DNA of 64,000 bases from Candidatus Amesbacteria bacterium GW2011_GWC2_45_19 (GTDB lineage: Bacteria; Patescibacteriota; Microgenomatia; CAZETR01; Amesbacteraceae), in contig LCKS01000001.1 of assembly GCA_001001555.1 (NCBI GenBank), forward strand, positions 82,066-146,065, in the 5' to 3' direction. The stretch's first letter is position 1; every line of letters begins with the position of its first letter. The notes below the pieces were generated by a model that saw only the letters and a program-made list of their open reading frames with translations, was not told where the DNA came from and ran no database searches. The position numbers and the translations under genes are program-made. Shown piece after piece: positions 5,016-33,050 of this stretch.

Positions 5016-5753
5016 ATGGCCCAAACTTATCTTTCTATTGTTATTCCCGCCTGGAATGAATCTGCCAACATCAAAAGAGGAGCCTTAGATCAAGTTCTCA
5101 AATACCTCGCCCGGCAGAAATTTTCCTGGGAAGTAATTGTTGTTAACGATGGTTCTTCAGACGACACGCTTAGACTTTTGGAAAAATATTCCATTAAAGT
5201 CATCAACAATCCCCATCAGGGTAAAGCGGCCAGTGTCGCCTCCGGAGTTTCCCAAAGCGCGGGCCGGATAATTCTTTTCAGCGATATGGACCAAGCCACT
5301 CCCATCTCCGAGTTCGACAAATTTATCCCCAAGTTTAAAGAAGGTTTCGACATTGTCATTGGCTCCAGGTCGGGCCGCAAAGGAGCTCCAATTTACCGTC
5401 AAATCCTGGCTTACGGCATGGTAATTTTGCGTACCATTCTGCTCCGCTTGCCATACCGGGACACCCAGTGCGGTTTCAAGGCTTTTACCAAGCCAACCGC
5501 CCAAAAACTTTTTGTTATTTTTAACAAAGTTCATCCCGTCAGACCGACAACGGGGGGTGTGACCAATCCGGGTTTTGACGTAGAACTACTGTATCTGAGC
5601 CGCAAGCTGGGATTTCGCACGGCAGAAGTTACAGTAAATTGGGAGCATCAGCATGGCGAGAGAGTCCGGTTTATAAAAGACGCCATCGCTGGCACTTGGG
5701 AACTGCTTCTTGTCCGCTGGCGGTCTCTTACCAATACCTATGGCCTCCGTTAA
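5016..5753 (+). CDS. GT2 polyprenyl-phosphate sugar synthase (DPM1/GtrB-like)
   Basis: LSIVIPAWNE...VIVVNDGSSDDT...FSDMDQA (DXD)...QCGFKAF; start moved to first ATG after upstream stop. Confidence 0.75.
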   Translation: MAQTYLSIVIPAWNESANIKRGALDQVLKYLARQKFSWEVIVVNDGSSDDTLRLLEKYSIKVINNPHQGKAASVASGVSQSAGRIILFSDMDQATPISEFDKFIPKFKEGFDIVIGSRSGRKGAPIYRQILAYGMVILRTILLRLPYRDTQCGFKAFTKPTAQKLFVIFNKVHPVRPTTGGVTNPGFDVELLYLSRKLGFRTAEVTVNWEHQHGERVRFIKDAIAGTWELLLVRWRSLTNTYGLR

Positions 5754-6516
5754 ACCTCTGCTTTCGGTCATAATTCCCGCCTACAACGAAGAAAAAAGGC
5801 TGGGTTCTCATTTGGAACTGGTATTGAAATTTTTTCGTTCTCGCTACCCCAACTTTGAGTTGATTATTGTCGACGACGGAAGTAACGATGCTACCGCCCG
5901 GACAATATCTGCCGCAATCCCCAAAGAACCTCGCGCTCATCTCATTACATACCAACCCAACCGGGGCAAAGGTTATGCCGTAAGAAAAGGAGTTCTGGCT
6001 TCGCGCGGCGACCCGGTTCTTTTTATGGATGCCGATTTGTCTACCCCCCTGTCCCAGGTTCCTAAAATTTTGCAGGCCCTTTGGGGGGCTGATATTGTTA
6101 TCGGTTCCCGGGGTCAGGCCAAATCCGATATCCGTCAGCGCCCTCCACTTTTCCGCAGATTAGCTTCGTTTATATTTGACCAGATTAAATATGCTTTAGT
6201 CGGCTTGCGCCGCTTCAAGGATACTCAATGCGGATTTAAAGTTTTCCGCGGATCTATCGCTCGCCAATTGTTTGCCCAAAGCCAAGTTAACCGTTTTATG
6301 TTTGACGTAGAGATTTTATATCTGGCTGAACAAGCTAGAATGATTATTCGCGAAATACCGGTCACCTGGGCCGACGCTCCCGATAGCCACGTGCGTTTTT
6401 GGGAAGGAGTGGTCAGCATGTTCCGTGACCTCTGGCGCATCCGCCGCATACACCAGGGACACTCCTTTAAGGTTAGTCCTTTTAAGGCTAAAGATCGATC
6501 ACGGAGTTCTGAATAA
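5740..6516 (+). CDS. GT2 polyprenyl-phosphate sugar synthase (DPM1/GtrB-like); C-terminal ~20 codons read through REP-like repeat copy A
   Basis: LSVIIPAYNEE...IIVDDGSNDAT...MDADLS...QCGFKVF; last residues ...HQGHSFKVSPFKAKD are encoded by the REP sequence. Confidence 0.7.
   Translation: MASVKPLLSVIIPAYNEEKRLGSHLELVLKFFRSRYPNFELIIVDDGSNDATARTISAAIPKEPRAHLITYQPNRGKGYAVRKGVLASRGDPVLFMDADLSTPLSQVPKILQALWGADIVIGSRGQAKSDIRQRPPLFRRLASFIFDQIKYALVGLRRFKDTQCGFKVFRGSIARQLFAQSQVNRFMFDVEILYLAEQARMIIREIPVTWADAPDSHVRFWEGVVSMFRDLWRIRRIHQGHSFKVSPFKAKDRSRSSE
6456..6483 (+). repeat. REP-like repeat copy A (GGGACACTCCTTTAAGGTTAGTCCTTTT)
   Basis: One of three near-identical direct copies flanking the RAYT gene. 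Confidence 0.7.
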
Positions 6517-7180
6517 CGCTAATAGAGGCCTCTTCTAATCTTTGATCTTCCACAAAAGACTCATATGAGTTTGTACCAGCCGCAGCAAAGTATCCCAAGA
6601 TGTCTTGTGGCTTTACCCACTCCTGGTTGATCCTCCCCAGGTAATTGGGATAAGATGACGGTTGGGGACACTCCTTTAAGGTTAGTCCTTTTTGAATAGG
6701 GTTGCGATGGATGTATCTAGTGAGATGAAGGAGTTGTTCTTCAGTTTCGACCAAAACAGCCTTGTAAGTATCCTGGAAAAGACCGCCAACCCGTTTATCA
6801 TGACGGTGATTAAAGTATTGAGCATAACGGGTAGCAAGAGATCTCATGAATTTCTCAATTCCTCGCTCATTCTTTTGTTTTATCAATAAATGAAAGTGGT
6901 TTGGCATCAGACAGTAAGCCCGTAAATCAATTTCTCCAGCGAAATTATTCATCCTCAACAACTTAGCTGCTTCCGATTTTTCCTTTGGTGAAGAATCGGG
7001 ATCCGCAATTATCTGAGCTAAACTACTTACGTCTTTAGGGGACAAATACTCTTTTAAGTAAGACAAAAAGACAGCTTCGTCTTGATGGTCAACAAATATC
7101 GTTCTTTTTTCCACCCCCCGGTTATAGATATGATAATAACCGTTAGGAAGATAATCTTTGACTTTGTTTCTGGCTGGCAT
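6488..7180 (-). CDS. REP-associated tyrosine transposase (RAYT; IS200/IS605-like HUH Y1 transposase)
   Basis: N-term YHIYNRG, HUH motif NHFHLLI, catalytic Tyr context RYIHRNP. ORF reads through REP copy B, so the true C-terminus may be shorter (~160 aa). Confidence 0.65.
   Translation of the reverse strand: MPARNKVKDYLPNGYYHIYNRGVEKRTIFVDHQDEAVFLSYLKEYLSPKDVSSLAQIIADPDSSPKEKSEAAKLLRMNNFAGEIDLRAYCLMPNHFHLLIKQKNERGIEKFMRSLATRYAQYFNHRHDKRVGGLFQDTYKAVLVETEEQLLHLTRYIHRNPIQKGLTLKECPQPSSYPNYLGRINQEWVKPQDILGYFAAAGTNSYESFVEDQRLEEASISVIQNSVIDL
6665..6693 (+). repeat. REP-like repeat copy B
   Basis: GGGACACTCCTTTAAGGTTAGTCCTTTTT; lies inside the 3' part of the RAYT ORF. Confidence 0.7.
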
Positions 7181-7182
7181 AG

Positions 7183-7210
7183 GGTTACTCCTTTAAGGTT
7201 AGTCCTTTTT
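7183..7210 (+). repeat. REP-like repeat copy C
   Basis: GGGTTACTCCTTTAAGGTTAGTCCTTTTT, 3 nt upstream of the RAYT start codon; followed by tandem TAGACTAAAT x2 at 7239..7258. Confidence 0.7.
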
Positions 7211-12720: not shown

Positions 12721-14249
12721 TAATTATAGGCACTATTATCTGGTCGTTGACCATGGTCAAGAGCGGCTGGATATATCCGTATGGCATGGGTTTTTGGGGG
12801 GCCAACGGCCACGACGGCATTTGGCACCTGTCTCTTGTCGAAAGCCTGTCCCGCGGCAGTTTGGCTATGCCCATGTTTGCCGGTGAAGTCATCAAAAATT
12901 ATCACCTGGGCTTTGATCTGATCTTGGCTGGTCTGCATCGCCTAACGGGAATTCCGGTAGTGAACTTATATTTTCAGATTGCTCCACCCGTTCTGGCTCT
13001 CTTAATCGGATTTTTGACTTTTAAACTTACCCGCAATTTATGGTCGGTTTTCTTCGTTTATTTCGGCGGCAACTGGGCCTGGATTTTAGGAAAAGGGGAA
13101 TCCACTTTCTGGTCCCAGGCCTCTATTTCTACCCTTATCAACCCTCCCTACGCACTTTCGCTAGTTGTCATTTTGTTAGGCCTAATATTACTCGATAAAA
13201 AACGTTATTTACTGGCCGGATTAATTTTTGGCCTGCTGGTGCAGATCAAAATTTACGCCGCTATTCTGATCATCGCCGGGCTGGGGGTAGCCGCTTTCAA
13301 AAACCGCCACCTTTTCAAAACTTTAGTGGCCACGCTTTTGGTCTCTCTGCCGTTATATCTGATTACTAACCGCCAATCCGCGTCTCTTATCGTCTTCCAG
13401 CCTGGGTGGTTTTTGGAAACCATGATGGCTCTGTCTGACCGGCTGAATTGGCCGCGGTTTTATGAAGCTATGACCAATTATCGCGCCGCGGGCAACTGGC
13501 TCAAGGCCGCACTAGCTTACGCTGCGGCCCTGGCTATTTTTGTAATTGGCAACCTGGGCACGCGCCTAATATTTTTGGCCCGTAAATTAAATCTGTTTTA
13601 CATAACCATTATTGTCCTAGGTGTTATTTTGCCCATGTTGTTTCTGCAATCCGGTACTCCCTGGAACACCATTCAATTTTTTTATTACCCCCTCTTCTTC
13701 GCCAGTCTTCTCGCTGGCGAATATTTGAAAATTGTAAATTTCAAATTTCAAATTTTGATAGTTCTTTTGACATTGCCCACCACCCTAATTACTCTGCGTG
13801 ACGTTTATCTGCCTTCGCGGCCTCCGGCTATGATTTCCCGTTCGGAGCTGGAAGCCCTGCAATTTCTGCGCGCCCAACCGCCGGGGATTGTTTTGACGCC
13901 CGTCGTTAATCCCAACCCTTATTCTCCACCCCCCAGGCCTTTATATCTCTACGAATCAACGGCCTATGTCTCTGCCCTCTCCGGCCAGCCGGTGTATATG
14001 GAAGACGAAGTCAATCTAAACATCACCACTTATGCCTGGCCGGTCCGCCGCCAAGTTATTCTTGATTTATTCGCCACCGGCGATGCTTCTGTTGCCGCCA
14101 AATTTCTCTCTGATAATAATATCCGTTATCTCTACCTGCCCCAAGTGGCCTTCGTTCGCCCCCGCCTTAGTGAAACGGCTTTAGGCATGACCAAGCTATT
14201 TGAAAATTCCCAGGTAGCTATTTGGGCCAGGTCAATTCTGCTAAAATAG
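12684..14249 (+). CDS. Polytopic membrane protein of unknown function (possible glycan polymerase/GT-C-like)
   Basis: 521 aa, many TM; no recognised catalytic motif; context next to wzx. Confidence 0.35.
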   Translation: MEKNNHRPPWSLIIIGTIIWSLTMVKSGWIYPYGMGFWGANGHDGIWHLSLVESLSRGSLAMPMFAGEVIKNYHLGFDLILAGLHRLTGIPVVNLYFQIAPPVLALLIGFLTFKLTRNLWSVFFVYFGGNWAWILGKGESTFWSQASISTLINPPYALSLVVILLGLILLDKKRYLLAGLIFGLLVQIKIYAAILIIAGLGVAAFKNRHLFKTLVATLLVSLPLYLITNRQSASLIVFQPGWFLETMMALSDRLNWPRFYEAMTNYRAAGNWLKAALAYAAALAIFVIGNLGTRLIFLARKLNLFYITIIVLGVILPMLFLQSGTPWNTIQFFYYPLFFASLLAGEYLKIVNFKFQILIVLLTLPTTLITLRDVYLPSRPPAMISRSELEALQFLRAQPPGIVLTPVVNPNPYSPPPRPLYLYESTAYVSALSGQPVYMEDEVNLNITTYAWPVRRQVILDLFATGDASVAAKFLSDNNIRYLYLPQVAFVRPRLSETALGMTKLFENSQVAIWARSILLK

Positions 14250-22988: not shown

Positions 22989-24587
22989 ATGCGCCGTTTA
23001 TTAATTCTGGCCCTGATTATCGGATCGCTCACGCGTCTCTTGTGGATCTCCCGCTATCCGGCCGGATTCACTGCCGACGAAGCAGCTTTTGGCTACAATG
23101 CCTACTCGCTCTTGCTTACCGGCCGTGACGAATGGGGGACTCCCTGGTGGCAATTGTTTTTTACCAACCTCCGTTCCTTTGGGGATTATAAACTTCCCCT
23201 TTACGCTTTCCTGGCCGTTCCCTCCGTTAAAATATTTGGTCTGACTGAATTTGCCGTCCGCCTGCCCAACGCCATTTTTGGCATTCTGGCTATCACAAGC
23301 ATTTACTTACTGGCAAAAAAGTTATACCTCACCTCTCACCCCTCTCCTTTAAAAGGAGAGGGGAACGCAAGGGGTGAGGTACTGGGAGTAACTTCTGCAT
23401 TACTGCTAGCCATCAGCCCCTGGCATATTCAACTGTCCCGGGGTGCCTTTGAAGCCAATCTGGCCACCTTTCTCTTGCCGATGGGGATCTATCTGCTTCT
23501 GGAAAGCCATCCTCTCCTTTCCACCCTCTTTTTTATCGCCTCGGCCTACTCCTATCATTCCGCCAGACTAATATTGCCGTTCATCCTCGTTTTTCTTTTT
23601 ATATACTTCCGGGATAAATTCAAACCCCTATTAATTATTCCTCTTCTGATCTCGCTTTGGGGGCTGACTTCCCCCCGGGTGGCTGACGTAAGCATTTTCA
23701 GCCCTACCGATAACTGGTTAGGAGTAGCCACCCGCCGTTTTGAAGCCCGGGCCCTGGGTCTTCCGGACCAAATAGCCCGCGTTTTTTCCAACAAACTGGT
23801 TTATTCACTTTCTACATTCACCCAAAATTATATTTCCTATTTCTCTCCCAACTTTCTGTTCACCTCCGGGGCCGGCGAATCCTTTTACGGCATGATGCCG
23901 GGCAGGGGAGTGCTTTATTTGATTGAACTGCCAATTTTGATCATGGCCCTAATTTATTTCATCCGTCGGCCATCAAAACTATATTTACTATTACTTTTAC
24001 TATTACTAATCTCCCCTATTCCCGCCGCTTTGGCCAAAGGTCCCGGAGCCGCCGCCAACCGCGCGGCAATCATGCTTCCCTGGCTGGTAATTTTTCTCTC
24101 TACCATTATTGTCCGCCTTCCGCGCAAATGGCTGGCTCTTTTAGCCGGCGCTTACGTTATTAGCTTCGTCTTTTTCGTCGAGGATTATCTATATCATTCC
24201 TCTTATATTACCGCCCCTTCCATGTCTTACGGATGGCGGGAATTGGTGCCGCGCCTCAAGCCTTTTTCCGACCGCTTTTCCGATGTGCGCTTCAGCCGCT
24301 CTCTTTCCGAACCGCATATTTTTGTGGCTTTTTATTCCCGTTTCGATCCCCGGGAGTATCAAAAAGCCGCGGCTTCCTGGCCCCGCCATATCAAGTTTTT
24401 GGACCAGTTTGATGGTTATTATTTGGGTAAATACCGTTTCGGCGACATTCATCCCCAAGATCCGGTAATCACTCCTACACTTTTCATTGGTAAACCGGAG
24501 GATTTTCCCGCCGGTTTTCCCCAATATTTCCAGATTGATTATCCTTCTTCCCGGCCGGCTATCATAGTCGCCCAAAAACTTCCATGA
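22989..24587 (+). CDS. GT-C family membrane glycosyltransferase, paralog 2; carries in-frame palindromic mini-element insertion
   Basis: FTADEAAFGYNAYSLLLTGRDEWG; extra 17 aa (SHPSPLKGEGNARGEVL) relative to paralogs, encoded by nested inverted repeats. Confidence 0.65.
   Translation: MRRLLILALIIGSLTRLLWISRYPAGFTADEAAFGYNAYSLLLTGRDEWGTPWWQLFFTNLRSFGDYKLPLYAFLAVPSVKIFGLTEFAVRLPNAIFGILAITSIYLLAKKLYLTSHPSPLKGEGNARGEVLGVTSALLLAISPWHIQLSRGAFEANLATFLLPMGIYLLLESHPLLSTLFFIASAYSYHSARLILPFILVFLFIYFRDKFKPLLIIPLLISLWGLTSPRVADVSIFSPTDNWLGVATRRFEARALGLPDQIARVFSNKLVYSLSTFTQNYISYFSPNFLFTSGAGESFYGMMPGRGVLYLIELPILIMALIYFIRRPSKLYLLLLLLLLISPIPAALAKGPGAAANRAAIMLPWLVIFLSTIIVRLPRKWLALLAGAYVISFVFFVEDYLYHSSYITAPSMSYGWRELVPRLKPFSDRFSDVRFSRSLSEPHIFVAFYSRFDPREYQKAAASWPRHIKFLDQFDGYYLGKYRFGDIHPQDPVITPTLFIGKPEDFPAGFPQYFQIDYPSSRPAIIVAQKLP
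23326..23380 (+). repeat. Palindromic mini-element (MITE/REPIN-like) inside GT-C coding sequence
   Basis: Inner perfect palindrome CCCCTCTCCTTT-A-AAAGGAGAGGGG (23339..23363); outer arms CTCACCCCT / AGGGGTGAG; preceded by 7-mer periodic CCTCACC TCTCACC CCTCTCC. Confidence 0.65.
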
Positions 24588-26089
24588 AAAAATATATTTT
24601 TATCCTCTTGGTTCTTTTAATTCCCGCATTTTCTCTCATGCTCCGCCCGGGCATTTTTACCATGCATGACTTTCACCCTTTCCGGCAGTATGAATTTTCC
24701 CAATGCGTCGCCGCTAAAACTTTCCCCTGCCGCTGGGCCCCTGATGCCGGCATGGGTTACGGTGAACCGGTATTTAATTTTTACGGCCAATTTCCCTACT
24801 GGGTCGGGCAAATTTTTCACTCTCTGGGGTTACAAATCATTGATTCCGTCAAAGCCAATTTTATTCTGACCATCATAGTTTCGGCTGTCGGCATGTATTT
24901 GCTGGGCAAAAAATATTGGGGAAACTTGGGCGGGATGATCGCGGCCCTGTTTTACATTTATGCGCCTTACCGGGCGGTAGACGTCTGGGTCCGCGGCTCT
25001 CTCAACGAGGCTTACGCTCTGGCTCTATTTCCTTTTATATTTCTCTCGCTGGACAACTTTCTGGACGACCATCAGCCCCGGCACTTATGGTGGCTGGTTT
25101 TCTTTGCCTCCGCACTACTCATAACCCACAACTTATCCGCACTCATGATTGCTCCGTTTCTGGCCATTTGGGTTTTTAAGAAATTCCCCGTGCCCTTCTC
25201 CCGCCTGATTGCCGCGGCAGCCGCCGTTTTTCTCTTGAGTGCTTTTTATTTACTGCCGGTTATTTTTGAAAGCCGGTTAGTCACCCTGAATTTGACTACC
25301 AGCTCCTATTACAATTATCAGCTCCACTGGACTACTCTCAAACAACTCTTTATTTCCCGTTTCTGGGGTTACGGCGGCTCCACCTGGGGCCCCAATGATA
25401 CTATGAGTTTTTCTGTGGGCTACCTGCAATGGCTCGTCCCTCTATTTCTTCTTCTTCGCAAAAAGTCCCTCGCGTTTATCGCTTTTGGCTTCTTTGCCGT
25501 TTTTCTCACTCACGGCAAGTCGGAATTTATCTGGAAACTTTTTCCGCCCCTGGCTTATATCCAATTCCCTTGGCGTTTCCTGGCCGTCTCTACTTTCTTT
25601 TTGTCTCTTTCCTCCGGCGCCATCTCTCAAGTTTTCTCCAAAAAAATTCTAAGTCTCTTAATCATCTTAGTTATCTTAATTAACTTTTCTTTCTTCCGTC
25701 CGGATATTTGGCGCAGCATTGGAGATAAAGAACAATTCTCGGGAGCCTTGTGGGACGAACAGCGCTCTTCCGCTCTTCAGGATTTTTGGCCTAAGACGGC
25801 CAAACAACTTCCCACCGGTTTTGCCCCACGCCTCCCCCAGGTTTTACTTACTACTGACACTTATCAAAAAATCCAATACCCAATTGTTTATTTCCCCGGC
25901 TGGAAATCCCAAGTCGAGCTGTTTCCATCGGGCCCATTGGGCCTCATCACTGCCCGGGTTCCCCTGGGCACTCAAATTAACCTGAAATTTACCAACACCC
26001 CAATCAGAACCATCGGCAACATTACTAGTTTGGTCGCTTTGCTATGTCTCATCTTAAGTGGCTATTACTTATTACCGCGGCGGGTCTAA
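24584..26089 (+). CDS. Large polytopic membrane protein, family B (paralog of 8730..10388)
   Basis: FPCRWAPDAGMGYGEPVFNFY...YAPYRAVDVWVRGSLNE...TNTPIRTIGN. Confidence 0.45.
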   Translation: MKKYIFILLVLLIPAFSLMLRPGIFTMHDFHPFRQYEFSQCVAAKTFPCRWAPDAGMGYGEPVFNFYGQFPYWVGQIFHSLGLQIIDSVKANFILTIIVSAVGMYLLGKKYWGNLGGMIAALFYIYAPYRAVDVWVRGSLNEAYALALFPFIFLSLDNFLDDHQPRHLWWLVFFASALLITHNLSALMIAPFLAIWVFKKFPVPFSRLIAAAAAVFLLSAFYLLPVIFESRLVTLNLTTSSYYNYQLHWTTLKQLFISRFWGYGGSTWGPNDTMSFSVGYLQWLVPLFLLLRKKSLAFIAFGFFAVFLTHGKSEFIWKLFPPLAYIQFPWRFLAVSTFFLSLSSGAISQVFSKKILSLLIILVILINFSFFRPDIWRSIGDKEQFSGALWDEQRSSALQDFWPKTAKQLPTGFAPRLPQVLLTTDTYQKIQYPIVYFPGWKSQVELFPSGPLGLITARVPLGTQINLKFTNTPIRTIGNITSLVALLCLILSGYYLLPRRV

Positions 26090-27549
26090 TTTTACGGCTG
26101 GCTGCCATTAATTTTTTGCCGCCCAGTCTCAACTGGGACGAAGTGTCACTGGGCTACAACGCTTACTCGCTTCTTAAAACCGGCCGGGATGAATGGGGAA
26201 CAGTTCTGCCCACTATTTTTCGCGCTTATGGCGATTACAAATTGCCTGTTTACGTTTATCTGGCCACAGTCATGCCCTTTTTTGTGCGCCTGCCCTCAAT
26301 CATTCTGGGCACCCTGCTCATTGTAATCACCTATCTATTAGGCCGCCGGCTATCTTCTCCGTTCGTGGGCTTGACTTCGGCTTTGCTGGTAGCCATCTCT
26401 CCCTGGACCTGGTGGATGTCCCGCATCGCATTGGAAGCCAATGTGGGGGTCTTGCTCATTGTCGTAGGTGTCTACTGTCTACTAATCCGTAAACTTAACT
26501 TGGGAATTCTCTTTTTGGGACTGTCAGTTTGGGCTTACAACTCCGCCCGTGTTTTCTCCCCCCTATTTTTATCCGCTTATTTTTTGATTTATCGTCCCAA
26601 ATTATCTATTGTCTCCTATTCTCTAATTTCTATTTTCCTCATCCCTATGATTATTCAGCTCTTGTCTCCGGTTGGTCAAGCCCGCCTCAACTGGCTGACT
26701 CTTTTGGATTCTGGAGCTATTTCCCGCATAGAGAACCTGCAAACCACCCGCCCCGGCGGCCGTCTGCTGTACAACAAGGCCACTTATTTTACCTACCGTT
26801 TCGTTCAAAATTACATCAGTTACTTTTCTCCCAATTTCTTATTTCTCAAGGGAGGAAACCATTATCAATTCAGCGTCCAAAACTTCGGCCTTCTTTATCT
26901 AATCTGTTTGCCATTTTTTTACATTGGGATTTTGAATTTATTTGGATCTTCGAATTTTAAATTTAGAATTTTACTTCTCATATGGCTCTTGTTGGCCCCA
27001 ATTGCTGGTAGTTTGACCCGTGACGCGCCTCATGTCTTACGCGCTGTCCCCCTGCTTCCTTTACCCATGCTGCTTATCTCCCTCGGCCTGGACCGTTTCG
27101 GCCGTAACGTTAAAGCCTTTTTCTTCACGGGTCTCCTAATATCTATTATCTACTATCTAGTATCCGCGAATAGTTACCGTAGTAACTATTCGCAATCTTG
27201 GCAATATGGTTATTCCCAGGTAGTTCAATTTATTAAACCCCGGTACTCCCAATACGACCAAATCGTTTTTACCAAAAAGTATGGGGAGCCTCACGAATTC
27301 GTGGCTTATTTCTGGCCCTGGGATCCCGCTGACTTTGCCAAAAATAAATCCTGGGACTACCACGCCAATTGGTATTGGGTAAACGCTTTGGATAAGATAA
27401 AGTTCGTAAACGATTGGGAGATTAAAAACATGGCCTTTAAACCGAACACTTTGGTTATTTCCAGTCCCGAAAGTGAAATTGCCGGCCGCGAGATAACCAG
27501 AATTAATTTTCTCGACGGCCAACCCGCCTTTATCATTTATGAGAAATAG
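26044..27549 (+). CDS. GT-C family membrane glycosyltransferase, paralog 3
   Basis: LNWDEVSLGYNAYSLLKTGRDEWG; shares exact 22-nt string CTATTCTCTAATTTCTATTTTC (26616..26637) with 2816..2837. Confidence 0.65.
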   Translation: MSHLKWLLLITAAGLILRLAAINFLPPSLNWDEVSLGYNAYSLLKTGRDEWGTVLPTIFRAYGDYKLPVYVYLATVMPFFVRLPSIILGTLLIVITYLLGRRLSSPFVGLTSALLVAISPWTWWMSRIALEANVGVLLIVVGVYCLLIRKLNLGILFLGLSVWAYNSARVFSPLFLSAYFLIYRPKLSIVSYSLISIFLIPMIIQLLSPVGQARLNWLTLLDSGAISRIENLQTTRPGGRLLYNKATYFTYRFVQNYISYFSPNFLFLKGGNHYQFSVQNFGLLYLICLPFFYIGILNLFGSSNFKFRILLLIWLLLAPIAGSLTRDAPHVLRAVPLLPLPMLLISLGLDRFGRNVKAFFFTGLLISIIYYLVSANSYRSNYSQSWQYGYSQVVQFIKPRYSQYDQIVFTKKYGEPHEFVAYFWPWDPADFAKNKSWDYHANWYWVNALDKIKFVNDWEIKNMAFKPNTLVISSPESEIAGREITRINFLDGQPAFIIYEK

Positions 27550-29101
27550 AATTATTCTCTTATTCATAGTCCTACTTGGGCTGGGACTTAGACTGTTTCG
27601 TCTAGATTCCCGCCCGTTAGGCTTTACCTGGGACGAAGCCGCTCTTGGTTACAACGCTTATTCGCTTCTTAAAACTGGCCGGGACGAGTATAGCAAAGTC
27701 CTACCCGTCGTTCTCAAATCCTTTGGCGACTACAAACCCGGCGCCTATGCCTACCTGGCTGTTCCTCCTATCGCCACTTTCGGCTTGAACGAGTTCGCCA
27801 CCCGTCTGCCCTCAGCCATCTTTGGAACGTTGCTTATTGTTATTGTTTACCTGCTCACCCGGAATATGTTTGCGGCCGGACTTTTGGCCATTAATCCCTG
27901 GTCGCTTTATTTTTCCCGCGGGGCTTGGGAGGCCAATGTCGCTCTTACCCTCACCGTTCTGGGCGTCCTTTTGTTTATCCGCCGCCGTTATCTGGTTTCG
28001 GCTCTCTTTTTTGGTTTGACCTTTCTTACTTACCAGGGAGCCAAAATGTTTACTCCGCTTCTTATTTTGTCCCTTCTTCTAATCTACCGTCCCAATATTA
28101 AATCATTAATTAAACCCCTGATCTTCCTGATCTTCCTGATCTTCCCCATCCTCCTGGGTCTCACCACCCAATCCGGCCGCCTGAAGGTCTTTAGCGTCTT
28201 CAGTTATTCGCGTTCTCCTTCCGTCGTCGGGGAAATAGAACGTCAGGATAATAACAATCCTTTTCTTTTCACTCTCTTCCATGCAGAAATTATTGACCAG
28301 GGCCGGGGAGTACTGCAAAGATATCTCAACCATTTTTCTCCTTATTATCTGTTCTTCGCCGGAGACTGGCAAAACCTGCGCCACTCCATTCCTTACTACG
28401 GCTACTTCCACCTTCCGGAAATAGTTACTGTCGTTCTAGGTCTTATTTTCCTAATCTCTAATTTCCAATCTCCAATTTCTAAAGTTCTTCTCACTTGGCT
28501 GCTGCTGGCCCCTTTGCCCTCCGCCCTTTCCCGCGACCTAGTCTCCGGCGTCCGCTCCCTGCCCCTGCTGGTACCCCTGGTCGTGCTTAGCGGCATTGGT
28601 TTGTCCCAACTTTTTCGCCATCGTCTTCTCTTATACTCTTACGCTCTGATACTTTTATTTTTCTTCGTCTATTATCTTGATTTATTCTATATCCACGCCC
28701 CCAATTTCACTGCCGTTGACTTCCTTTATCCCTATCGCCCCGCGCTTCAGACAATCAAACTTCTTGTCTCAAATTATAAAAAGATTGTTATCACTTCCCA
28801 ACTTGGTCAACCCTACATATTTACTTTATTTTATTTGCAAATCGACCCCCGCATATATCAATCTCAAGCCCGTTTGCGCGAAAATCCCCAAGGGGACGTA
28901 GGCGAAGTAGAAAAATTTGATATATTCGAATTCCGTCCCATTTTCTGGCCGGCTGATAGGGGATTGTCATCAACTCTATTTGTGGGTGGCCAGTACGAGC
29001 TTCCCGAATCAGATTTACAGACCACTCCCAATCTGGAAAGAGTTTCCGATATCACTTACCCCGGCGGGGCCCCCGCCTTAAAAATTGTTGGCCTCAAATG
29101 A
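27539..29101 (+). CDS. GT-C family membrane glycosyltransferase, paralog 4
   Basis: FTWDEAALGYNAYSLLKTGRDEY; contains (CCTGATCTT)x3. Confidence 0.65.
   Translation: MRNRIILLFIVLLGLGLRLFRLDSRPLGFTWDEAALGYNAYSLLKTGRDEYSKVLPVVLKSFGDYKPGAYAYLAVPPIATFGLNEFATRLPSAIFGTLLIVIVYLLTRNMFAAGLLAINPWSLYFSRGAWEANVALTLTVLGVLLFIRRRYLVSALFFGLTFLTYQGAKMFTPLLILSLLLIYRPNIKSLIKPLIFLIFLIFPILLGLTTQSGRLKVFSVFSYSRSPSVVGEIERQDNNNPFLFTLFHAEIIDQGRGVLQRYLNHFSPYYLFFAGDWQNLRHSIPYYGYFHLPEIVTVVLGLIFLISNFQSPISKVLLTWLLLAPLPSALSRDLVSGVRSLPLLVPLVVLSGIGLSQLFRHRLLLYSYALILLFFFVYYLDLFYIHAPNFTAVDFLYPYRPALQTIKLLVSNYKKIVITSQLGQPYIFTLFYLQIDPRIYQSQARLRENPQGDVGEVEKFDIFEFRPIFWPADRGLSSTLFVGGQYELPESDLQTTPNLERVSDITYPGGAPALKIVGLK
28117..28143 (+). 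repeat. 9-nt tandem repeat (CCTGATCTT)x3 in GT-C paralog 4
   Basis: Read directly; encodes LIFLIFLIF in a TM segment. Confidence 0.8.
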
Positions 29102-30675
29102 AAAAATTTCTCCTCATTTTCATTCTTATCCTGGCATCAGTCCTGCGGCTCTACAAACTGTCTTCATACCCGGCTGGTCTAAACGCCGATGAAGCCGCGT
29201 TAGGTTACAATGCTTATTCTTTGATGCTGACCGGCCGTGATGAGCACGGCCATCCCTGGCCGGTGAATCTGGAATCGTTCGGCGATTTCAAGCCTGCCGG
29301 CTACGCGTATTTGCTCATTCCTTTCATCAAAGTTTTCGGCCTGACCGAACTGGCCGTCCGCCTCCCCTCGGCTATCTTCGGCATCCTAGCCGTTCTCTTC
29401 ATCTATTTACTGGTCAAAGAGCTGAGCACTGAGGGCTGCGCGCTGATAGCTGCGATATTGCTAGCAATATCGCCGTGGCATTTGCACTTCTCCCGCGGCG
29501 GCTGGGAAGTCAACGTGGCCACCACTCTGATTCTCATCGGCGTCTGGCTCTTCCTCAAACGTCGCTTTGCCCTTTGCACTTTGCCCTTTGCACTTTCGAT
29601 GTACACCTACCAATCAGCCCGCGTCATCGTCCCTTTTCTGGGATTAGGACTAATATTACTCAATCGCCCAAAAAAGATTCTGTCTAGCGGCTTATTACTG
29701 TTACTGTTATTATCTCCTCTGGCCCTCTCGGTACTTCGTTCAGACGCCGCCTCCCGTTTATCCGGCGTGGGGCTGCTGGCCGATGAAGGGCCTCTTAACC
29801 GGGCCAAAGAACTGCGCGGCCAACATGCAAACTGGAGTTCTCCTCTGTCCCGGATTCTCCACAACCGGCCCGTTCTCTACACCATCCAATTCTTGAAAAA
29901 TTACACAGATCATTTTTCCGGCGACTTTCTTTTCGTCAACGGCGACGTCATCCCCCGGAACCGGGTTCCCGAAACCGGCCTGCTGTATTTCACTGATTTC
30001 ATCTTTCTGGCTCTGGGCGTGGTCTATCTTCTCCGCACTACTCACTACTCACTACACACCCGGGTTATCTGGCTCTGGTTGCTCGTCGCCCCTCTTGCTG
30101 CGGCTCTGACGTTCCAAATCCCCCACGCCCTGCGGGCCCACACCTTGGTCATTCCCCTCACGATCTTGATCGCGGCCGGCGGATACTCTTTAAAGGAGAC
30201 TCCTTTTAAGTTTAAAAGGAGTCTCCTTTTTATAGTGGCTGTGATTTATTTGTGGCAATTTGCCAGATATCTGCACCAGTATTACATCCACTATCCCCAA
30301 ACTTATCCTTACGCTTGGGAGTACGGTTTCAAAGAACTGGTGGCTTACGTGGGATCGGTCCAAGACAAATATGAAAAGATTTTAGTCACCGATAAATATG
30401 ACCAGCCATATATTATCTTTCTCTTTTATTCCAAGTATCCGCCTCAATTATTCCAAAATAATCACCAGCTTACTTTCAGGGATAAGTTTAATTTCTCTAC
30501 CGTCCGCGACTACGGCAAGTTCCATTTTGCCGCCACTCCCTGGTCAACCGTCCGCGATATCCATTCCTCGCTTATTGTGGCCGCCCCGGAAGATATTCCC
30601 GAAGTAGGTGTTAATATAGTTAAAACCATTAATTTTCCCAATGGCCAGCCCGCATTTAAAATAATCAGCAACTAA
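29098..30675 (+). CDS. GT-C family membrane glycosyltransferase, paralog 5
   Basis: LNADEAALGYNAYSLMLTGRDEHG; closest to paralog 1 (RRFALCTLPFALSMYTY). Confidence 0.65.
   Translation: MKKFLLIFILILASVLRLYKLSSYPAGLNADEAALGYNAYSLMLTGRDEHGHPWPVNLESFGDFKPAGYAYLLIPFIKVFGLTELAVRLPSAIFGILAVLFIYLLVKELSTEGCALIAAILLAISPWHLHFSRGGWEVNVATTLILIGVWLFLKRRFALCTLPFALSMYTYQSARVIVPFLGLGLILLNRPKKILSSGLLLLLLLSPLALSVLRSDAASRLSGVGLLADEGPLNRAKELRGQHANWSSPLSRILHNRPVLYTIQFLKNYTDHFSGDFLFVNGDVIPRNRVPETGLLYFTDFIFLALGVVYLLRTTHYSLHTRVIWLWLLVAPLAAALTFQIPHALRAHTLVIPLTILIAAGGYSLKETPFKFKRSLLFIVAVIYLWQFARYLHQYYIHYPQTYPYAWEYGFKELVAYVGSVQDKYEKILVTDKYDQPYIIFLFYSKYPPQLFQNNHQLTFRDKFNFSTVRDYGKFHFAATPWSTVRDIHSSLIVAAPEDIPEVGVNIVKTINFPNGQPAFKIISN
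29565..29596 (+). repeat. Degenerate heptamer array (CTTTGC[A/C])x4 in GT-C paralog 5, homologous position to (TTTGCAC)x4 in paralog 1
   Basis: gCTTTGCCCTTTGCACTTTGCCCTTTGCACTTTcg. Confidence 0.7.
30192..30229 (+). repeat. Perfect 18-bp inverted repeat with 2-nt spacer (REPIN-like doublet) inside GT-C paralog 5
   Basis: AAAGGAGACTCCTTTTAA-GT-TTAAAAGGAGTCTCCTTT; core GACTCCTTTTAAG resembles REP core CACTCCTTTAAGG. Confidence 0.65.
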
Positions 30676-31490
30676 TGAAGTATCACCCCTCCTCACTACG
30701 TTCGGTTTCCCCTCTTAAATTAAGAGGGGACAAAGGGGTGATATTGTCTGTTGTTCTTGCCACTCGCAATGAGGAGGCCAATCTAACTCGTTGTCTGGAG
30801 GCGGTAAAATCGATTGCCAATGAGATAATCATTGCGGACGAGCAATCAACCGACAAAACAGTGGGAATAGCCAAAAAATTCGGGGCAAAAGTCATTTCTG
30901 TTCCGCATCAGGAAAATTTCCATATCACCAAAAATATCGCCATAGACGCCGCCCGTGGAGACTGGATCCTCCAATTAGATGCCGACGAAGTCGTCTCCCC
31001 CGAACTGGCTTGCGAAATTGTCTCTACTATCAACCATGAATCATCAACCATGAACGGTTATTGGGTTAACCGCCGCAATTGGTTTCTCACCCGCTTCTTA
31101 TCTAAAGGCGGCCAATATCCGGATCCCACTCTCCGCCTGTACCGCCGGGGAAAAGGAAGACTTCCGGCCAAAGACGTGCACGAGCAAGCACAGATCCAGG
31201 GTCCAACCGGCCGCTTGCGGAACGATTTGTACCACTACCGGGATACCAGTTTCGCCAAGTACTTAGATGGTTTTAATCGCTATTCATCGTTTTTGGCGGC
31301 AAATATTAACCCCGAGGTCAATTTGCGGCAAACTCTCAACTACCTGGGCTGCAAACCAGTGGTAACGTTTTGTAAAATCTATTTTCGTCACCGGGGTTAC
31401 GTTGACGGTTACCCTGGTTTTGTCTTTGCCCTCTTTTCCGGCCTCACCCACGCCATCGCCTATATTAAATATTGGCAAAGGTTATTATGA
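30675..31490 (+). CDS. GT2 glycosyltransferase (short soluble type); true start possibly GTG at 30738
   Basis: VVLATRNEE...EIIIADEQSTDKT...LDADEVV. The first 21 codons (KYHPSSLRSVSPLKLRGDKG) are encoded by a palindromic mini-element and are probably not native coding sequence. Confidence 0.65.
   Translation: MKYHPSSLRSVSPLKLRGDKGVILSVVLATRNEEANLTRCLEAVKSIANEIIIADEQSTDKTVGIAKKFGAKVISVPHQENFHITKNIAIDAARGDWILQLDADEVVSPELACEIVSTINHESSTMNGYWVNRRNWFLTRFLSKGGQYPDPTLRLYRRGKGRLPAKDVHEQAQIQGPTGRLRNDLYHYRDTSFAKYLDGFNRYSSFLAANINPEVNLRQTLNYLGCKPVVTFCKIYFRHRGYVDGYPGFVFALFSGLTHAIAYIKYWQRLL
30681..30743 (+). repeat. Palindromic mini-element (same architecture as 23326..23380) at gene junction
   Basis: Outer perfect 10-bp arms TATCACCCCT / AGGGGTGATA; inner CCCCTCTTAA-A-TTAAGAGGGG (30709..30729). 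Confidence 0.65.
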
Positions 31491-32464
31491 TCAAGGTTGG
31501 TTTCATTACGGCTCCTCTTCACGACGCTAACGCAGTCCGCGGCGTCGGGTCATATACCCGCCGCCTTCTTCCGGAACTCAAAAAACAAACCTCTGATTTT
31601 GGATTTGAAATCGTTGAAAATGACACGTCTGCAGAGATTATCCACTATCCGTATTTTGATTTATTTCGGCACACTTTACCAATATTCAAAGATGCCAAGA
31701 CTATAGTTACCGTCCATGACGTTATTCCTTTGGAATTTCCCGATCATTATCCACCCGGCCTGCGCGGCTGGTTTAATCTGCAACTACAAAAACTAGCCCT
31801 GAGCGAAGTCGAAGGGGTGATTACCATTTCGTACCACTGCGTTAAGACAATTCATAAGTACTTAAACGTACCTCACGGCAAGTTGAAATTGGTTTACGAA
31901 GCCGCTGACTCCATATTTAAAAAGATTTCTAAACCCAAAAATAAATTTAACCTGCCCAAAAAATTCGTTCTCTACGTTGGAGATGTAAATTGGAATAAGA
32001 ATATACCCAATTTAATTAAAACCTGTGAACAAATAAATTACCCATTGGTAATGGTGGGTAAACAAGCAGCTGAAGTAGAAAAATTGGACTTAAATCATGC
32101 CGAACTGCGGCATTTACAAGGAGTAGATTGGAGTAAAGTTATGAAATTGGGATTCGTGTCCGCTGCAGACCTAGTGGACATTTACAATTTGGCCACTGTT
32201 TATTGCCAGCCTTCATTTTCAGAAGGTTTTGGCCTGCCGGTGGTGGAAGCTCTGGCTTGCGGTACTCCGGTGGCCTGCAGTAATACTTCATCTTTGCCGG
32301 AAATAGCCGGCGACTCTGCCACCTACTTTGATCCCCATGATGTAAACGATATGGCTAAAGCTATCAAAAAGGCCAAGCCTAGCACTGTACAACCCAAGTT
32401 TTCCTGGGCCAAAGCCGCCGCCCAAACTTTGCAAGTCTACCAGGAAGTATTAGAGTTGGTTTAA
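31487..32464 (+). CDS. GT4 (GT-B fold) glycosyltransferase
   Basis: PSFSEGFGLPVVEALACGTPVACSNTSSLPE; ATGA overlap with upstream gene; last 30 nt duplicated downstream of BrnTA. Confidence 0.7.
   Translation: MIKVGFITAPLHDANAVRGVGSYTRRLLPELKKQTSDFGFEIVENDTSAEIIHYPYFDLFRHTLPIFKDAKTIVTVHDVIPLEFPDHYPPGLRGWFNLQLQKLALSEVEGVITISYHCVKTIHKYLNVPHGKLKLVYEAADSIFKKISKPKNKFNLPKKFVLYVGDVNWNKNIPNLIKTCEQINYPLVMVGKQAAEVEKLDLNHAELRHLQGVDWSKVMKLGFVSAADLVDIYNLATVYCQPSFSEGFGLPVVEALACGTPVACSNTSSLPEIAGDSATYFDPHDVNDMAKAIKKAKPSTVQPKFSWAKAAAQTLQVYQEVLELV
32425..32452 (+). repeat. Left copy of 28-nt direct repeat bracketing the BrnTA cassette (3' end of GT4 gene)
   Basis: AACTTTGCAAGTCTACCAGGAAGTATTA vs 33049..33076 AACTTTGCAAGTCTACCGGGAAGTATTA (27/28). 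Confidence 0.7.
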
Positions 32465-32502: not shown

Positions 32503-32787
32503 GTGAAATATGTGGATTGGAATGCAGCCAAAAACGAGATTCTAAAAACAGAGAGAGGAATTTCGTTTGAAGATGTTATGGCAGCATTCGTAGAAGAAGG
32601 TTTACTTGACATTATTAAACATCCAAATGAACAAAAGTATTCTCATCAAAAAATGATTATAGTTAATGTTGACGATTATGTTTATCTGGTTCCGTTTGTC
32701 GAAGACGATGAAAAGATTTTTTTGAAAACCATACTGCCCAGCCGAGAAGCAACAAAACGTTATCTAATCCAAAAAGCAAAAAAATGA
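32503..32787 (+). CDS. brnT: BrnT-like toxin (DUF497 ribonuclease toxin of type II TA)
   Basis: GTG start; VDWNAAKNEILKTERGISFEDVMAAF...IIVNVDDYVYLVPFVEDDEKIFLKTILPSREATKRY fits DUF497/BrnT layout. Confidence 0.6.
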   Translation: MKYVDWNAAKNEILKTERGISFEDVMAAFVEEGLLDIIKHPNEQKYSHQKMIIVNVDDYVYLVPFVEDDEKIFLKTILPSREATKRYLIQKAKK

Positions 32788-33050
32788 GCCAAAAATATTT
32801 TGATTTAACTTCAGAAGAACAAAGATTACTAACTTCATTCGAAGCTGGTGAATGGCGTAGTGTCGCGGATTTGGAAAAATCTAAGAGACTGTATCGTCAG
32901 TATGCAGCAAACACTCTGGCTAAAGCCAAGAATGTAAATTTAAGATTGGCAGAAAAAACAGTCTTGAAATTTAAAGCAAAAGCAGCTTCCGAAGGAATTC
33001 CTTATCAGACTCTCATGTCTTCAGTACTTCACAAGTACGCAAACCAATAA
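32784..33050 (+). CDS. brnA: BrnA-like antitoxin (RHH/CopG-like, DUF4415-type)
   Basis: C-terminal VNLRLAEKTVLKFKAKAASEGIPYQTLMSSVLHKY is the BrnA signature; ATGA overlap with brnT. Confidence 0.6.
   Translation: MSQKYFDLTSEEQRLLTSFEAGEWRSVADLEKSKRLYRQYAANTLAKAKNVNLRLAEKTVLKFKAKAASEGIPYQTLMSSVLHKYANQ

Follow-up and report, generated by a model that had tools for sequence, protein, structure and literature searches.

Triplex-type palindromic repeats in and beside glycosyltransferase genes of an Amesbacteria genome, with a DUF559 cassette as candidate parent

Two palindromic elements in a glycosyltransferase array

The 64,000-nt stretch of Candidatus Amesbacteria bacterium GW2011_GWC2_45_19 analyzed here (contig LCKS01000001.1, positions 82,066 to 146,065; hereafter the window, with coordinates counted from its first letter) belongs to a contig that is also contained in Rifle groundwater metagenomes, and it carries two short palindromic elements, E1 and E2, in the neighborhood of a tandem array of GT-C (PMT_2/PTPS_related) glycosyltransferase genes followed by GT2 and GT4 genes. 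E1 (23325..23381, plus strand) is 57 nt long and lies in frame within a GT-C (PMT_2-like) gene (22989..24587, plus strand), where it lengthens the turn between two predicted helices. E2 (30681..30743, plus strand) lies between another GT-C gene (29098-30675), whose stop codon is just 5' of it, and a GT2 glycosyltransferase open reading frame (ORF; 30675..31490, plus strand), of which it forms the first ~23 codons. On the account that we consider probable, both elements are inserted repeats of the intrastrand-triplex type without any link to a repetitive extragenic palindrome (REP)-associated tyrosine transposase (RAYT), and their likely parent is a cassette built around a DUF559 nuclease gene. 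The first-pass annotation of this DNA had placed palindromes at three positions, and all three were confirmed: E1, E2 and a third, E3, at 30192-30229. In the DNA and RNA folding check, which computed Watson-Crick pairing, each folds far better than shuffled sequence (DNA z = -6.8 for E1, -5.0 for E2 and -6.4 for E3, with 0/200 shuffles equaling them), the RNA hairpin of E1 reaches -38.6 kcal/mol, and the window has two occurrences of the pair CCCCTCT-N4-20-AGAGGGG where 0.01 would be expected. Chance does not account for the three.

E1 is a solo copy of what we call the E1-type element. Its left outer arm, (T)ACCTCACC, also written TACCTCACC (23325..23333, plus strand), complements the mirror strand on the right and yields a 9-triad motif on the minus strand. 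The inner palindrome CCCCTCTCCTTT-A-AAAGGAGAGGGG (23339-23363) is perfect, 12/1/12, and comprises a pyrimidine arm (23339..23350, plus strand) and a purine arm (23352..23363, plus strand). A linker (23364-23370) leads to the mirror, or third, strand GGGGTGAGGTA (23371..23381, plus strand), with the right outer arm GGTGAGGTA at 23373-23381 on the same strand. The 19-codon insert, Y113-V131, encodes YLTSHPSPLKGEGNARGEV. That the encoded peptide is extra relative to the paralogs, as proposed on first reading, was borne out by alignment of both paralogs and orthologs, although its length is 19 codons (57 nt) and not 17 residues: the residues are found only in gene 22989-24587 and are missing from all 5 paralogs in the window, and among orthologs the peptide is present at 99% and 84% identity and absent at 77-81% identity. 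E1 is carried by the window strain and by the 84%-identical ortholog L004, whereas L005, L009 and the majority of 120 homologs lack it. The L004 copy differs by two compensating pair changes in the apex, CCTTT-A-AAAGG becoming CCTAA-A-TTAGG. In the 120 homologs surveyed, the basic length of the GT-C loop is 39-42 residues; the E1-type peptide is found in P0001, P0002 and P0096, P0016 has a half copy of which the left half alone remains in the DNA, three further homologs have possible remnants of the form Y..(R/K)GE(V/I)LG, and the ortholog P0005 has an unrelated A/T-rich insert at the same site. An AlphaFold2 model of the E1 host (pLDDT 93.4 overall, 78-87 at the insert) places the insert at the end of one helix (87-116), in a loop (117-123) with a short HPSPLKG turn, and at the start of the next helix (124-141), a picture consistent with a tolerated loop extension.

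The same GT-C loops are filled elsewhere by a second, A/T-rich mini-insert with the core AAAATTAAAAATTTAAAATT, which encodes peptides such as KIKNLKLKI; in a related form, AAATTGG-type repeats give KLEIGNWKLEI. These inserts occur at L007 10355-10374 and 18606-18625, L005 17214-17233 and L144 12639-12658, and in proteins P0005, P0017, P0052, P0065, P0069, P0102 and P0110, occupying the E1 site in L007 and the E3 site in L005.

E2, a solo copy of the E2-type element, has the inner hairpin TCCCCTCTTAA-A-TTAAGAGGGGA (30708..30730, plus strand), an 11/1/11 palindrome with its pyrimidine block at 30708-30718 and its purine block at 30720-30730. Its outer arms are TATCACCCCT (30681-30690) and AGGGGTGATA (30734-30743), and its mirror strand AGGGGTGAT (30734..30742, plus strand) forms 9 valid triads against the purine arm at 30722-30730. 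Compared with three orthologous GT-C/GT2 junctions (L004, L007 and L010), at which the two genes overlap, E2 is a net insertion of ~67 nt. The called start of the GT2 gene is the ATG at 30675; an in-frame GTG (30738) and TTG (30744) follow the AAAGGGG of E2 and may serve as alternative starts, either of which would yield the usual short N-terminus (M-SVVLATRNEE). The left linker of E2 has CTCACT(A/T)CGTTCG in common with one of the inserts that are nested in the apices of E1-type hairpins.

E3 (30192..30229, plus strand) lies inside the GT-C gene 29098-30675 and consists of two 15-nt palindromes, AAAGGAG-N-CTCCTTT, in perfect 18-nt arms separated by a 2-nt loop. At the same position L007 has a different self-complementary pair, AAAGGAT-T-ATCCTTT, and three other orthologs have no palindrome. 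The first-pass annotation had grouped E3 with E1 and E2 and likened its core to the repeat beside the RAYT-like gene of the window. Neither claim held: the E3 unit occurs nowhere else among 218 loci, it lacks the purine-mirror strand and has none of the E1/E2 core, and the resemblance to the RAYT flank is an 11/12 match with one indel which, searched as GGAGACTCCTTTTAA with up to 3 mismatches, reduces to one triplicated sequence. We regard E3 as a thing apart, either an inverted duplication confined to this locus or a locally conserved hairpin. A role of E2 or E3 as terminators was also rejected, no terminator-like site being found within 30000-31000. The window has no further degenerate copies of E1 or E2, and the occurrence of AGGGGTGA at 31813 is a chance match.

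Distribution, coding-sequence residence and class of the repeats

Further copies were sought in genomes and in metagenomes. A scan of one genome per species with the pattern CCCTCT..AGAGGGGA..AGGGGTGA returned at least 120 loci, and the more than 120 related motifs among the matches listed derive from Chloroflexota, Cyanobacteria, Bacteroidota, Gemmatimonadota, Patescibacteria, Bipolaricaulota, Omnitrophota, a Bathyarchaeota metagenome-assembled genome (MAG) and others. With the right half of the E1-type element as query, a metagenome scan gave 88 hits at 64 distinct loci, chiefly from Rifle and Hainich groundwater and from bacteria of the candidate phyla radiation (CPR); the loci gathered, 646 kb in all, hold 104 motifs, 88 of them the seeds. 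The E1-type consensus is (T)ATACCTC[A/T]CC, 5 nt, CCCCTCTCC, a palindromic apex, GGAGAGGGG, AACNNAA and GGGGTGAGGTAT, and the apex variants TAA-A-TTA, TAT-T-ATA, TGA-A-TCA and TTT-A-AAA still pair. E1-type elements are about 57 nt long and E2-type elements about 61 nt. On these data E1 and E2 are members of a single family of palindromic mini-elements, dispersed and polymorphic for insertion, which can reside in frame in coding sequence, as had been suggested, with the E1 segment absent from most orthologs. One of the earlier descriptors did not survive: the supposed family core CTCCTTT(T)AA...TTAAAGGAG is the apex and is the most variable part of the element. Nor is the family lineage-specific, having relatives across many phyla. 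Phage carriage was considered and rejected, with 0 E1-type and 4 general hits in 2.9 million viral contigs.

Residence inside genes is frequent. At 28 of the 64 E1-type loci the element is in frame within a long ORF, in both orientations, and the hosts confirmed by Pfam are UvrA, Fmt, Dus, NAD(P)HX dehydratase, PrgI-like and PTPS_related proteins. At least 7 different GT-C genes have the element at exactly the same loop. Ten more E2-type copies were found in the same loci, several of them in frame, and in other phyla the general motif is in frame in TopA, aconitase, GatB, HypF and a type IX secretion system tail. Elements are 84-96% identical to each other while their host proteins are only 23-53% identical, so the copies are either much younger than the genes in which they sit or have been homogenized. 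Since almost half of the CPR copies lie inside genes, the repeats would routinely give rise to variation in protein length and to annotation artifacts, such as the putative false N-terminus of the GT2 protein. An expectation that only multiples of 3 occur inside genes did not hold with the boundaries used, which gave lengths of 57, 58 and 59 nt in both contexts. The literature searched for in-frame peptides and for palindromic inserts in CPR held nothing relevant.

Several loci show other arrangements. One CPR uvrA gene (L180) has two elements in frame at different sites, near 13320 and 14093, one of the E1-type and one of the E2-type, and L170 has an E1-type element at the same UvrA site as L180. 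Extra inserts of 25-45 nt are nested in the apex of E1-type hairpins in L142, L145/L162 and L202. In Chloroflexota (L028, an Anaerolineales, and L121, L107 and L031) the motif is repeated in tandem every 110-127 nt or so, and about five tandem copies are translated within the aconitase of L028 (..GRGEGVRGSPAGRGEGVRGSP..).

The architecture of E1 and E2 corresponds to a described class of DNA repeats. Intrastrand triplex motifs were reported by Holder et al. (2015) as the BoxC/PIT elements, or TMECO, of E. coli, and also from cyanobacteria and others (PMC4666352). Their rule calls for a pyrimidine stem, then its purine complement and then a third stem of G, A or T that runs antiparallel to the purine one, with at least 8 triads of the types G*G:C, A*A:T or T*A:T and at most one mismatch (PMC4666352); loops are limited to 1-6 nt by ITxF (Holder 2015) and to 0-10 nt by Hoyne (2000). 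Both elements have the three blocks. Set against the purine arm read 3'->5', GGGGAGAGGAA, the third strand of E1, GGGGTGAGGTA, gives an unbroken run of 11 valid triads (G*G, T*A and A*A), and E2 forms 9, perfect in both cases, with 9 on the minus strand of each; the loops of E2, 1-3 nt, fall inside both loop limits. Through the left outer arms the opposite strand carries the motif as well, an arrangement that Holder et al. call the "palindromic" form. At positions outside the search pattern, covariation among the 138 distinct genome hits in the matches listed follows the triad rule. At position 10 a purine-arm G is accompanied by a third-strand G in 32/38 and a purine-arm A by a third-strand T in 29/33, and the mean triad run of 9.54 compares with 8.96 +/- 0.04 when third strands are permuted, 13 standard deviations above. 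The left outer arm of E1-type elements has one variable position, T in 28 copies and A in 18, and a T there breaks the Watson-Crick pairing with the right arm while keeping valid triads on the opposite strand. By their blocks and triads E1 and E2 would be candidate triplex formers. They do not match the TMECO consensus CCCTCNCCC-N3-6-GGGNGAGGG-N3-GGGNGAGGG; their conserved core is CCCCTCTCC / GGAGAGGGG plus GGGGTGAGG, with the G-run register shifted relative to TMECO and a loop of 7 or 3 nt. Judged by motif, they are of the same class as TMECO/BoxC and of a different sub-type, the CPR counterpart of intrastrand-triplex (BoxC/PIT/TM) repeats known from earlier work. No Rfam family covers them, and the search there returned only generic hairpin or miRNA-like matches below threshold.

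A DUF559 cassette as candidate parent and the competing explanations

A search for matching outer arms set further apart found a 427-nt form, at locus L136, in which a left arm and hairpin are followed by a 111-residue ORF on the other strand and then by a hairpin and right arm. The ORF is a DUF559 protein (PF04480; Pfam E = 4.9e-28), a member of the Vsr-like PD-(D/E)XK nuclease clade that also holds the group I intron homing endonuclease I-Bth0305I (PMC3424549). The repeat-selected loci, about 1.6 Mb, hold 10 DUF559 ORFs, and by inspection triplex-type hairpins bracket 10/10 of them, in sources that include CPR bacteria, a Beijerinckiaceae (Alphaproteobacteria), a Cyclobacteriaceae (Bacteroidota), a Bryobacteraceae (Acidobacteria), a Bathyarchaeota MAG and others. 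In the reverse test, with DUF559 homologs chosen by protein similarity alone, the motif lies within 150 nt in 5/6, and one Lentisphaerae DUF559 locus carries the exact E. coli-type (TMECO) sequence. About 18/24 DUF559 homologs end in peptides encoded by the pyrimidine arm. In the Bryobacteraceae MAG (L080, about 5400-6100) a whole hairpin-DUF559-hairpin cassette lies in frame inside the type I restriction-modification protein HsdM and splits its N6_Mtase domain in two. The association reaches E. coli K-12, where the DUF559 gene ycjD is 168 nt from TMECO #9 and has its stop codon in a degenerate hairpin. DUF559 genes and these hairpins are associated, as shown on a small sample. A hidden Markov model built from 25 DUF559 proteins added no ORFs to the tblastn set, and no paper connecting DUF559 with BoxC-type repeats was found in the literature searched.

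Three DUF559 loci show further features. In the Cyclobacteriaceae MAG (L050, 200-1199) a cassette is fused in frame to an amidohydrolase, and in L225 one lies between hsdR and hsdM. In E. coli K-12 (L223, 1351260-1351400) a partial duplicate of the ycjD 3' end, with GAATATTCTCCAGCACCGTCTCC occurring twice, lies between ycjD and TMECO #9 and suggests a decayed second DUF559 copy; ycjD itself sits where other E. coli lineages have eefRABCD (PMC12817139).

From these observations we propose that E1 and E2 are solo copies of two subfamilies, E1-type and E2-type, of a G-rich hairpin repeat dispersed in Amesbacteria-like CPR. The elements entered their sites by insertion and would survive in compact CPR genomes where the reading frame is kept and a tolerant loop is lengthened. 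E1 would extend a helix-turn-helix between two predicted GT-C helices, and E2 would separate two formerly overlapping genes and provide the GT2 gene with an N-terminal extension or a new start region. The parent is likely to be a 0.4-kb cassette of outer arms and two hairpins around a DUF559 gene, in which recombination between the hairpins would leave a solo element; the layout of E1, in which 5 nt separate the hairpin from one outer arm and 7 nt from the following one, is the expected product of such two-hairpin recombination. In this way solo copies may derive from the DUF559 cassette, and the DUF559 nuclease may drive the spread by way of the hairpin or triplex structure.

A number of points weigh against this account. 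The window itself contains no DUF559 gene within its 64 kb, the DUF559 sample is small (10 + 6 loci), and the cassette might target pre-existing hairpins. The second loop of E1 (AACGCAA) is 7 nt, one above the ITxF maximum and within the Hoyne range, and Holder et al. observed triplex in vitro with no in vivo signal for the E. coli motif (PMC4666352). The E2 junction differs from the empty orthologs by a few extra bases, and neither a target-site duplication nor a clean nucleotide-level empty/filled pair was found. The element lengths of 57, 58 and 59 nt, in and out of genes, are not all multiples of 3 by the boundaries used. Repeated use of one GT-C loop is without explanation, and TA precedes the left arm in 39/46 copies, the TA on the right being set by the search pattern.

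The strongest competitor, which we consider unlikely, turns the relationship around: the hairpins would be pre-existing homing targets of DUF559 cassettes, and solo copies would multiply otherwise, through template switching, gene conversion or an unidentified transposase. The same adjacency of hairpins and DUF559 genes would be expected, the short inserts nested in the apices of L142, L145 and L202 would suit it, and most E. coli sites have no mobility genes nearby (Holder et al., PMC4666352). In L136, however, the ORF stands between two complete hairpins with one outer arm each and not within a split hairpin, and this is the layout of a parent that can collapse to the solo form.

A still less probable candidate is a classical MITE (a miniature transposable element with inverted repeats) of a TA-targeting (IS630/Correia-like) transposon, with the terminal inverted repeat CCTCACC/GGTGAGG and duplication of TA. 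Terminal inverted repeats of 9-10 bp, (A)TACCTCACC / GGTGAGGTA(T), are indeed present, the modal length is 57 nt, and TA stands at the left of the arm in the proportion given above and at the right in every copy, as the search pattern demands; as a check for target duplication, the comparison with the empty E2 site was not clean. Against such an origin, no transposase with these ends was found in any locus, the search for arm pairs having returned the DUF559 cassette and pairs of separate elements only; the 427-nt form, which shares these ends, codes for a DUF559 nuclease and not for a known transposase. Subfamilies related to these in other phyla have ends such as GGTT or GGGT and not TA, and covariation of the mirror strand is unexpected for a plain terminal inverted repeat.

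We give marginally less weight again to the idea that the inserts are kept for function, either as a selected peptide module (PSP..GEG..RGEVL) in GT-C loops or as an RNA or DNA hairpin that regulates translation or transcript stability. The shared GT-C loop, the compensatory changes in the apex, the stability of the E1 RNA hairpin and the placement by E2 of AAAGGGG ahead of an in-frame GTG/TTG speak for it, but the same DNA also occurs between genes, in both orientations, in several frames and in unrelated proteins. Identity of the element DNA far exceeds host conservation, most orthologs lack the insert, no terminator-like tail is present, and PIT motifs, as cited by Holder et al., are without promoter or terminator activity in E. 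coli (PMC4666352).

The window does hold a RAYT-like ORF (6488-7180) with a Pfam Y1_Tnp match (E = 3.7e-13) and HUH and YIHRNP motifs, and the first-pass annotation had proposed that RAYT-mobilized REP doublets forming hairpins (REPINs) account for the palindromes. Three exact, direct 23-nt copies of ACTCCTTTAAGGTTAGTCCTTTT, at 6461-6483, 6670-6692 and 7187-7209, surround this gene, one being upstream, one downstream and one in frame within the C-terminal coding part, where it encodes KGLTLKECP; the repeat is unrelated to E1 and E2 and does not fold (z = -1.2). REPs are defined by a GTAG/CGTC tag outside the stem and are known within genes (PMC3733652), whereas GTAG, CTAC, CGTC or GACG occurs in only 3-12 of the 64 E1-type elements plus flanks, at no fixed position. 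E1 and E2 are strong hairpins and REPs inside genes have precedent, but with unrelated RAYT flanks, no consistent tag, an NCBIfam REP_Tyr_transpos score of 56.7 under a cutoff of 80, and no RAYT homolog by tblastn in the 1.67 Mb of 218 repeat-bearing loci, recognition and spread of the hairpins as REPs by the Y1 transposase is highly improbable. Elsewhere in the window, G+C falls from about 0.47 to about 0.38 past about 34 kb, and a BrnT/BrnA-like toxin-antitoxin pair (32503-33050), missing in the relatives L005, L007 and L009, lies just ahead of this change.

G-rich repeats of the BoxC type have been on record in E. coli since the 1990s and, since 2015, in hundreds of genomes, and we know of no origin, mobilizing enzyme or function found for them so far. 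The bracketing of DUF559 genes from CPR bacteria to E. coli ycjD offers a concrete candidate for the missing autonomous partner of these repeats. A broader and considerably more tentative proposal is that BoxC/PIT repeats across phyla could be the ORF-less remains of a pan-bacterial DUF559 cassette, whose nuclease would recognize the hairpin or triplex and drive its copying, could home to preferred sites such as the one GT-C loop, and would routinely remodel essential CPR proteins in frame; we hold this to be possible and somewhat doubtful.

Comparison with known repeat systems

Among described systems, the BoxC/PIT/TMECO repeats of E. coli (Hoyne et al. 2000; Holder et al. 2015, PMC4666352) are the closest to E1 and E2. 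Both have the one-strand order of a C-rich arm, a loop, a G-rich arm, a loop and a G/T mirror strand, both use the same triads and occur in "palindromic" double forms, and the wording is nearly equal, GGAGAGGGG/GGGGTGAGG in E1/E2 against GGGAGAGGG/GGGTGAGGG in E. coli. Both are also patchy among close relatives and tied to local deletions. E1 and E2 differ from TMECO in the shifted register of the G-run, the 7-nt second loop (E1), the conserved outer ends TACCTC...GAGGTA and the CPR host, and unlike TMECO, which is reported to be always intergenic, 44% of the CPR copies are in frame inside genes. What is new here is that the repeats form subfamilies in CPR, that they often reside in frame inside genes and that they are linked to DUF559.

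In their relation to coding sequence, the repeats are more like the Rickettsia palindromic elements (RPEs; Ogata et al. 2000, as summarized in PMC10969869), which are in-frame palindromic selfish repeats in many unrelated housekeeping genes, with the peptide at a tolerant site. The E1-type family shows the same recurrent in-frame insertion in unrelated conserved genes, at the 28/64 loci described above. RPEs are set apart by being about 100-150 bp long and confined to Rickettsia, unlike the elements described here, which are 57-61 nt long and have relatives in many phyla. They have no triplex-type mirror strand and, going by the literature, no known sequence likeness to E1 and E2. REPs and REPINs (Bertels & Rainey 2011; Di Nocera et al. 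2013, PMC3733652) are likewise short, GC-rich, multi-copy hairpins, some of them inside genes and notably repair genes; E1 and E2 differ from them in having a mirror strand, in lacking the GTAG/CGTC tag and in not lying beside a RAYT gene. The ORF between the hairpins of the cassette, a DUF559 PD-(D/E)XK nuclease, is akin to the Vsr-like/EDxHD homing endonucleases and to DUF559 proteins such as YcjD (PMC3424549, PMC1189080). Unlike homing endonuclease genes, the cassette has no intron or intein context, and its gene is bracketed by triplex-type hairpins, with the stop codon usually within one of them.

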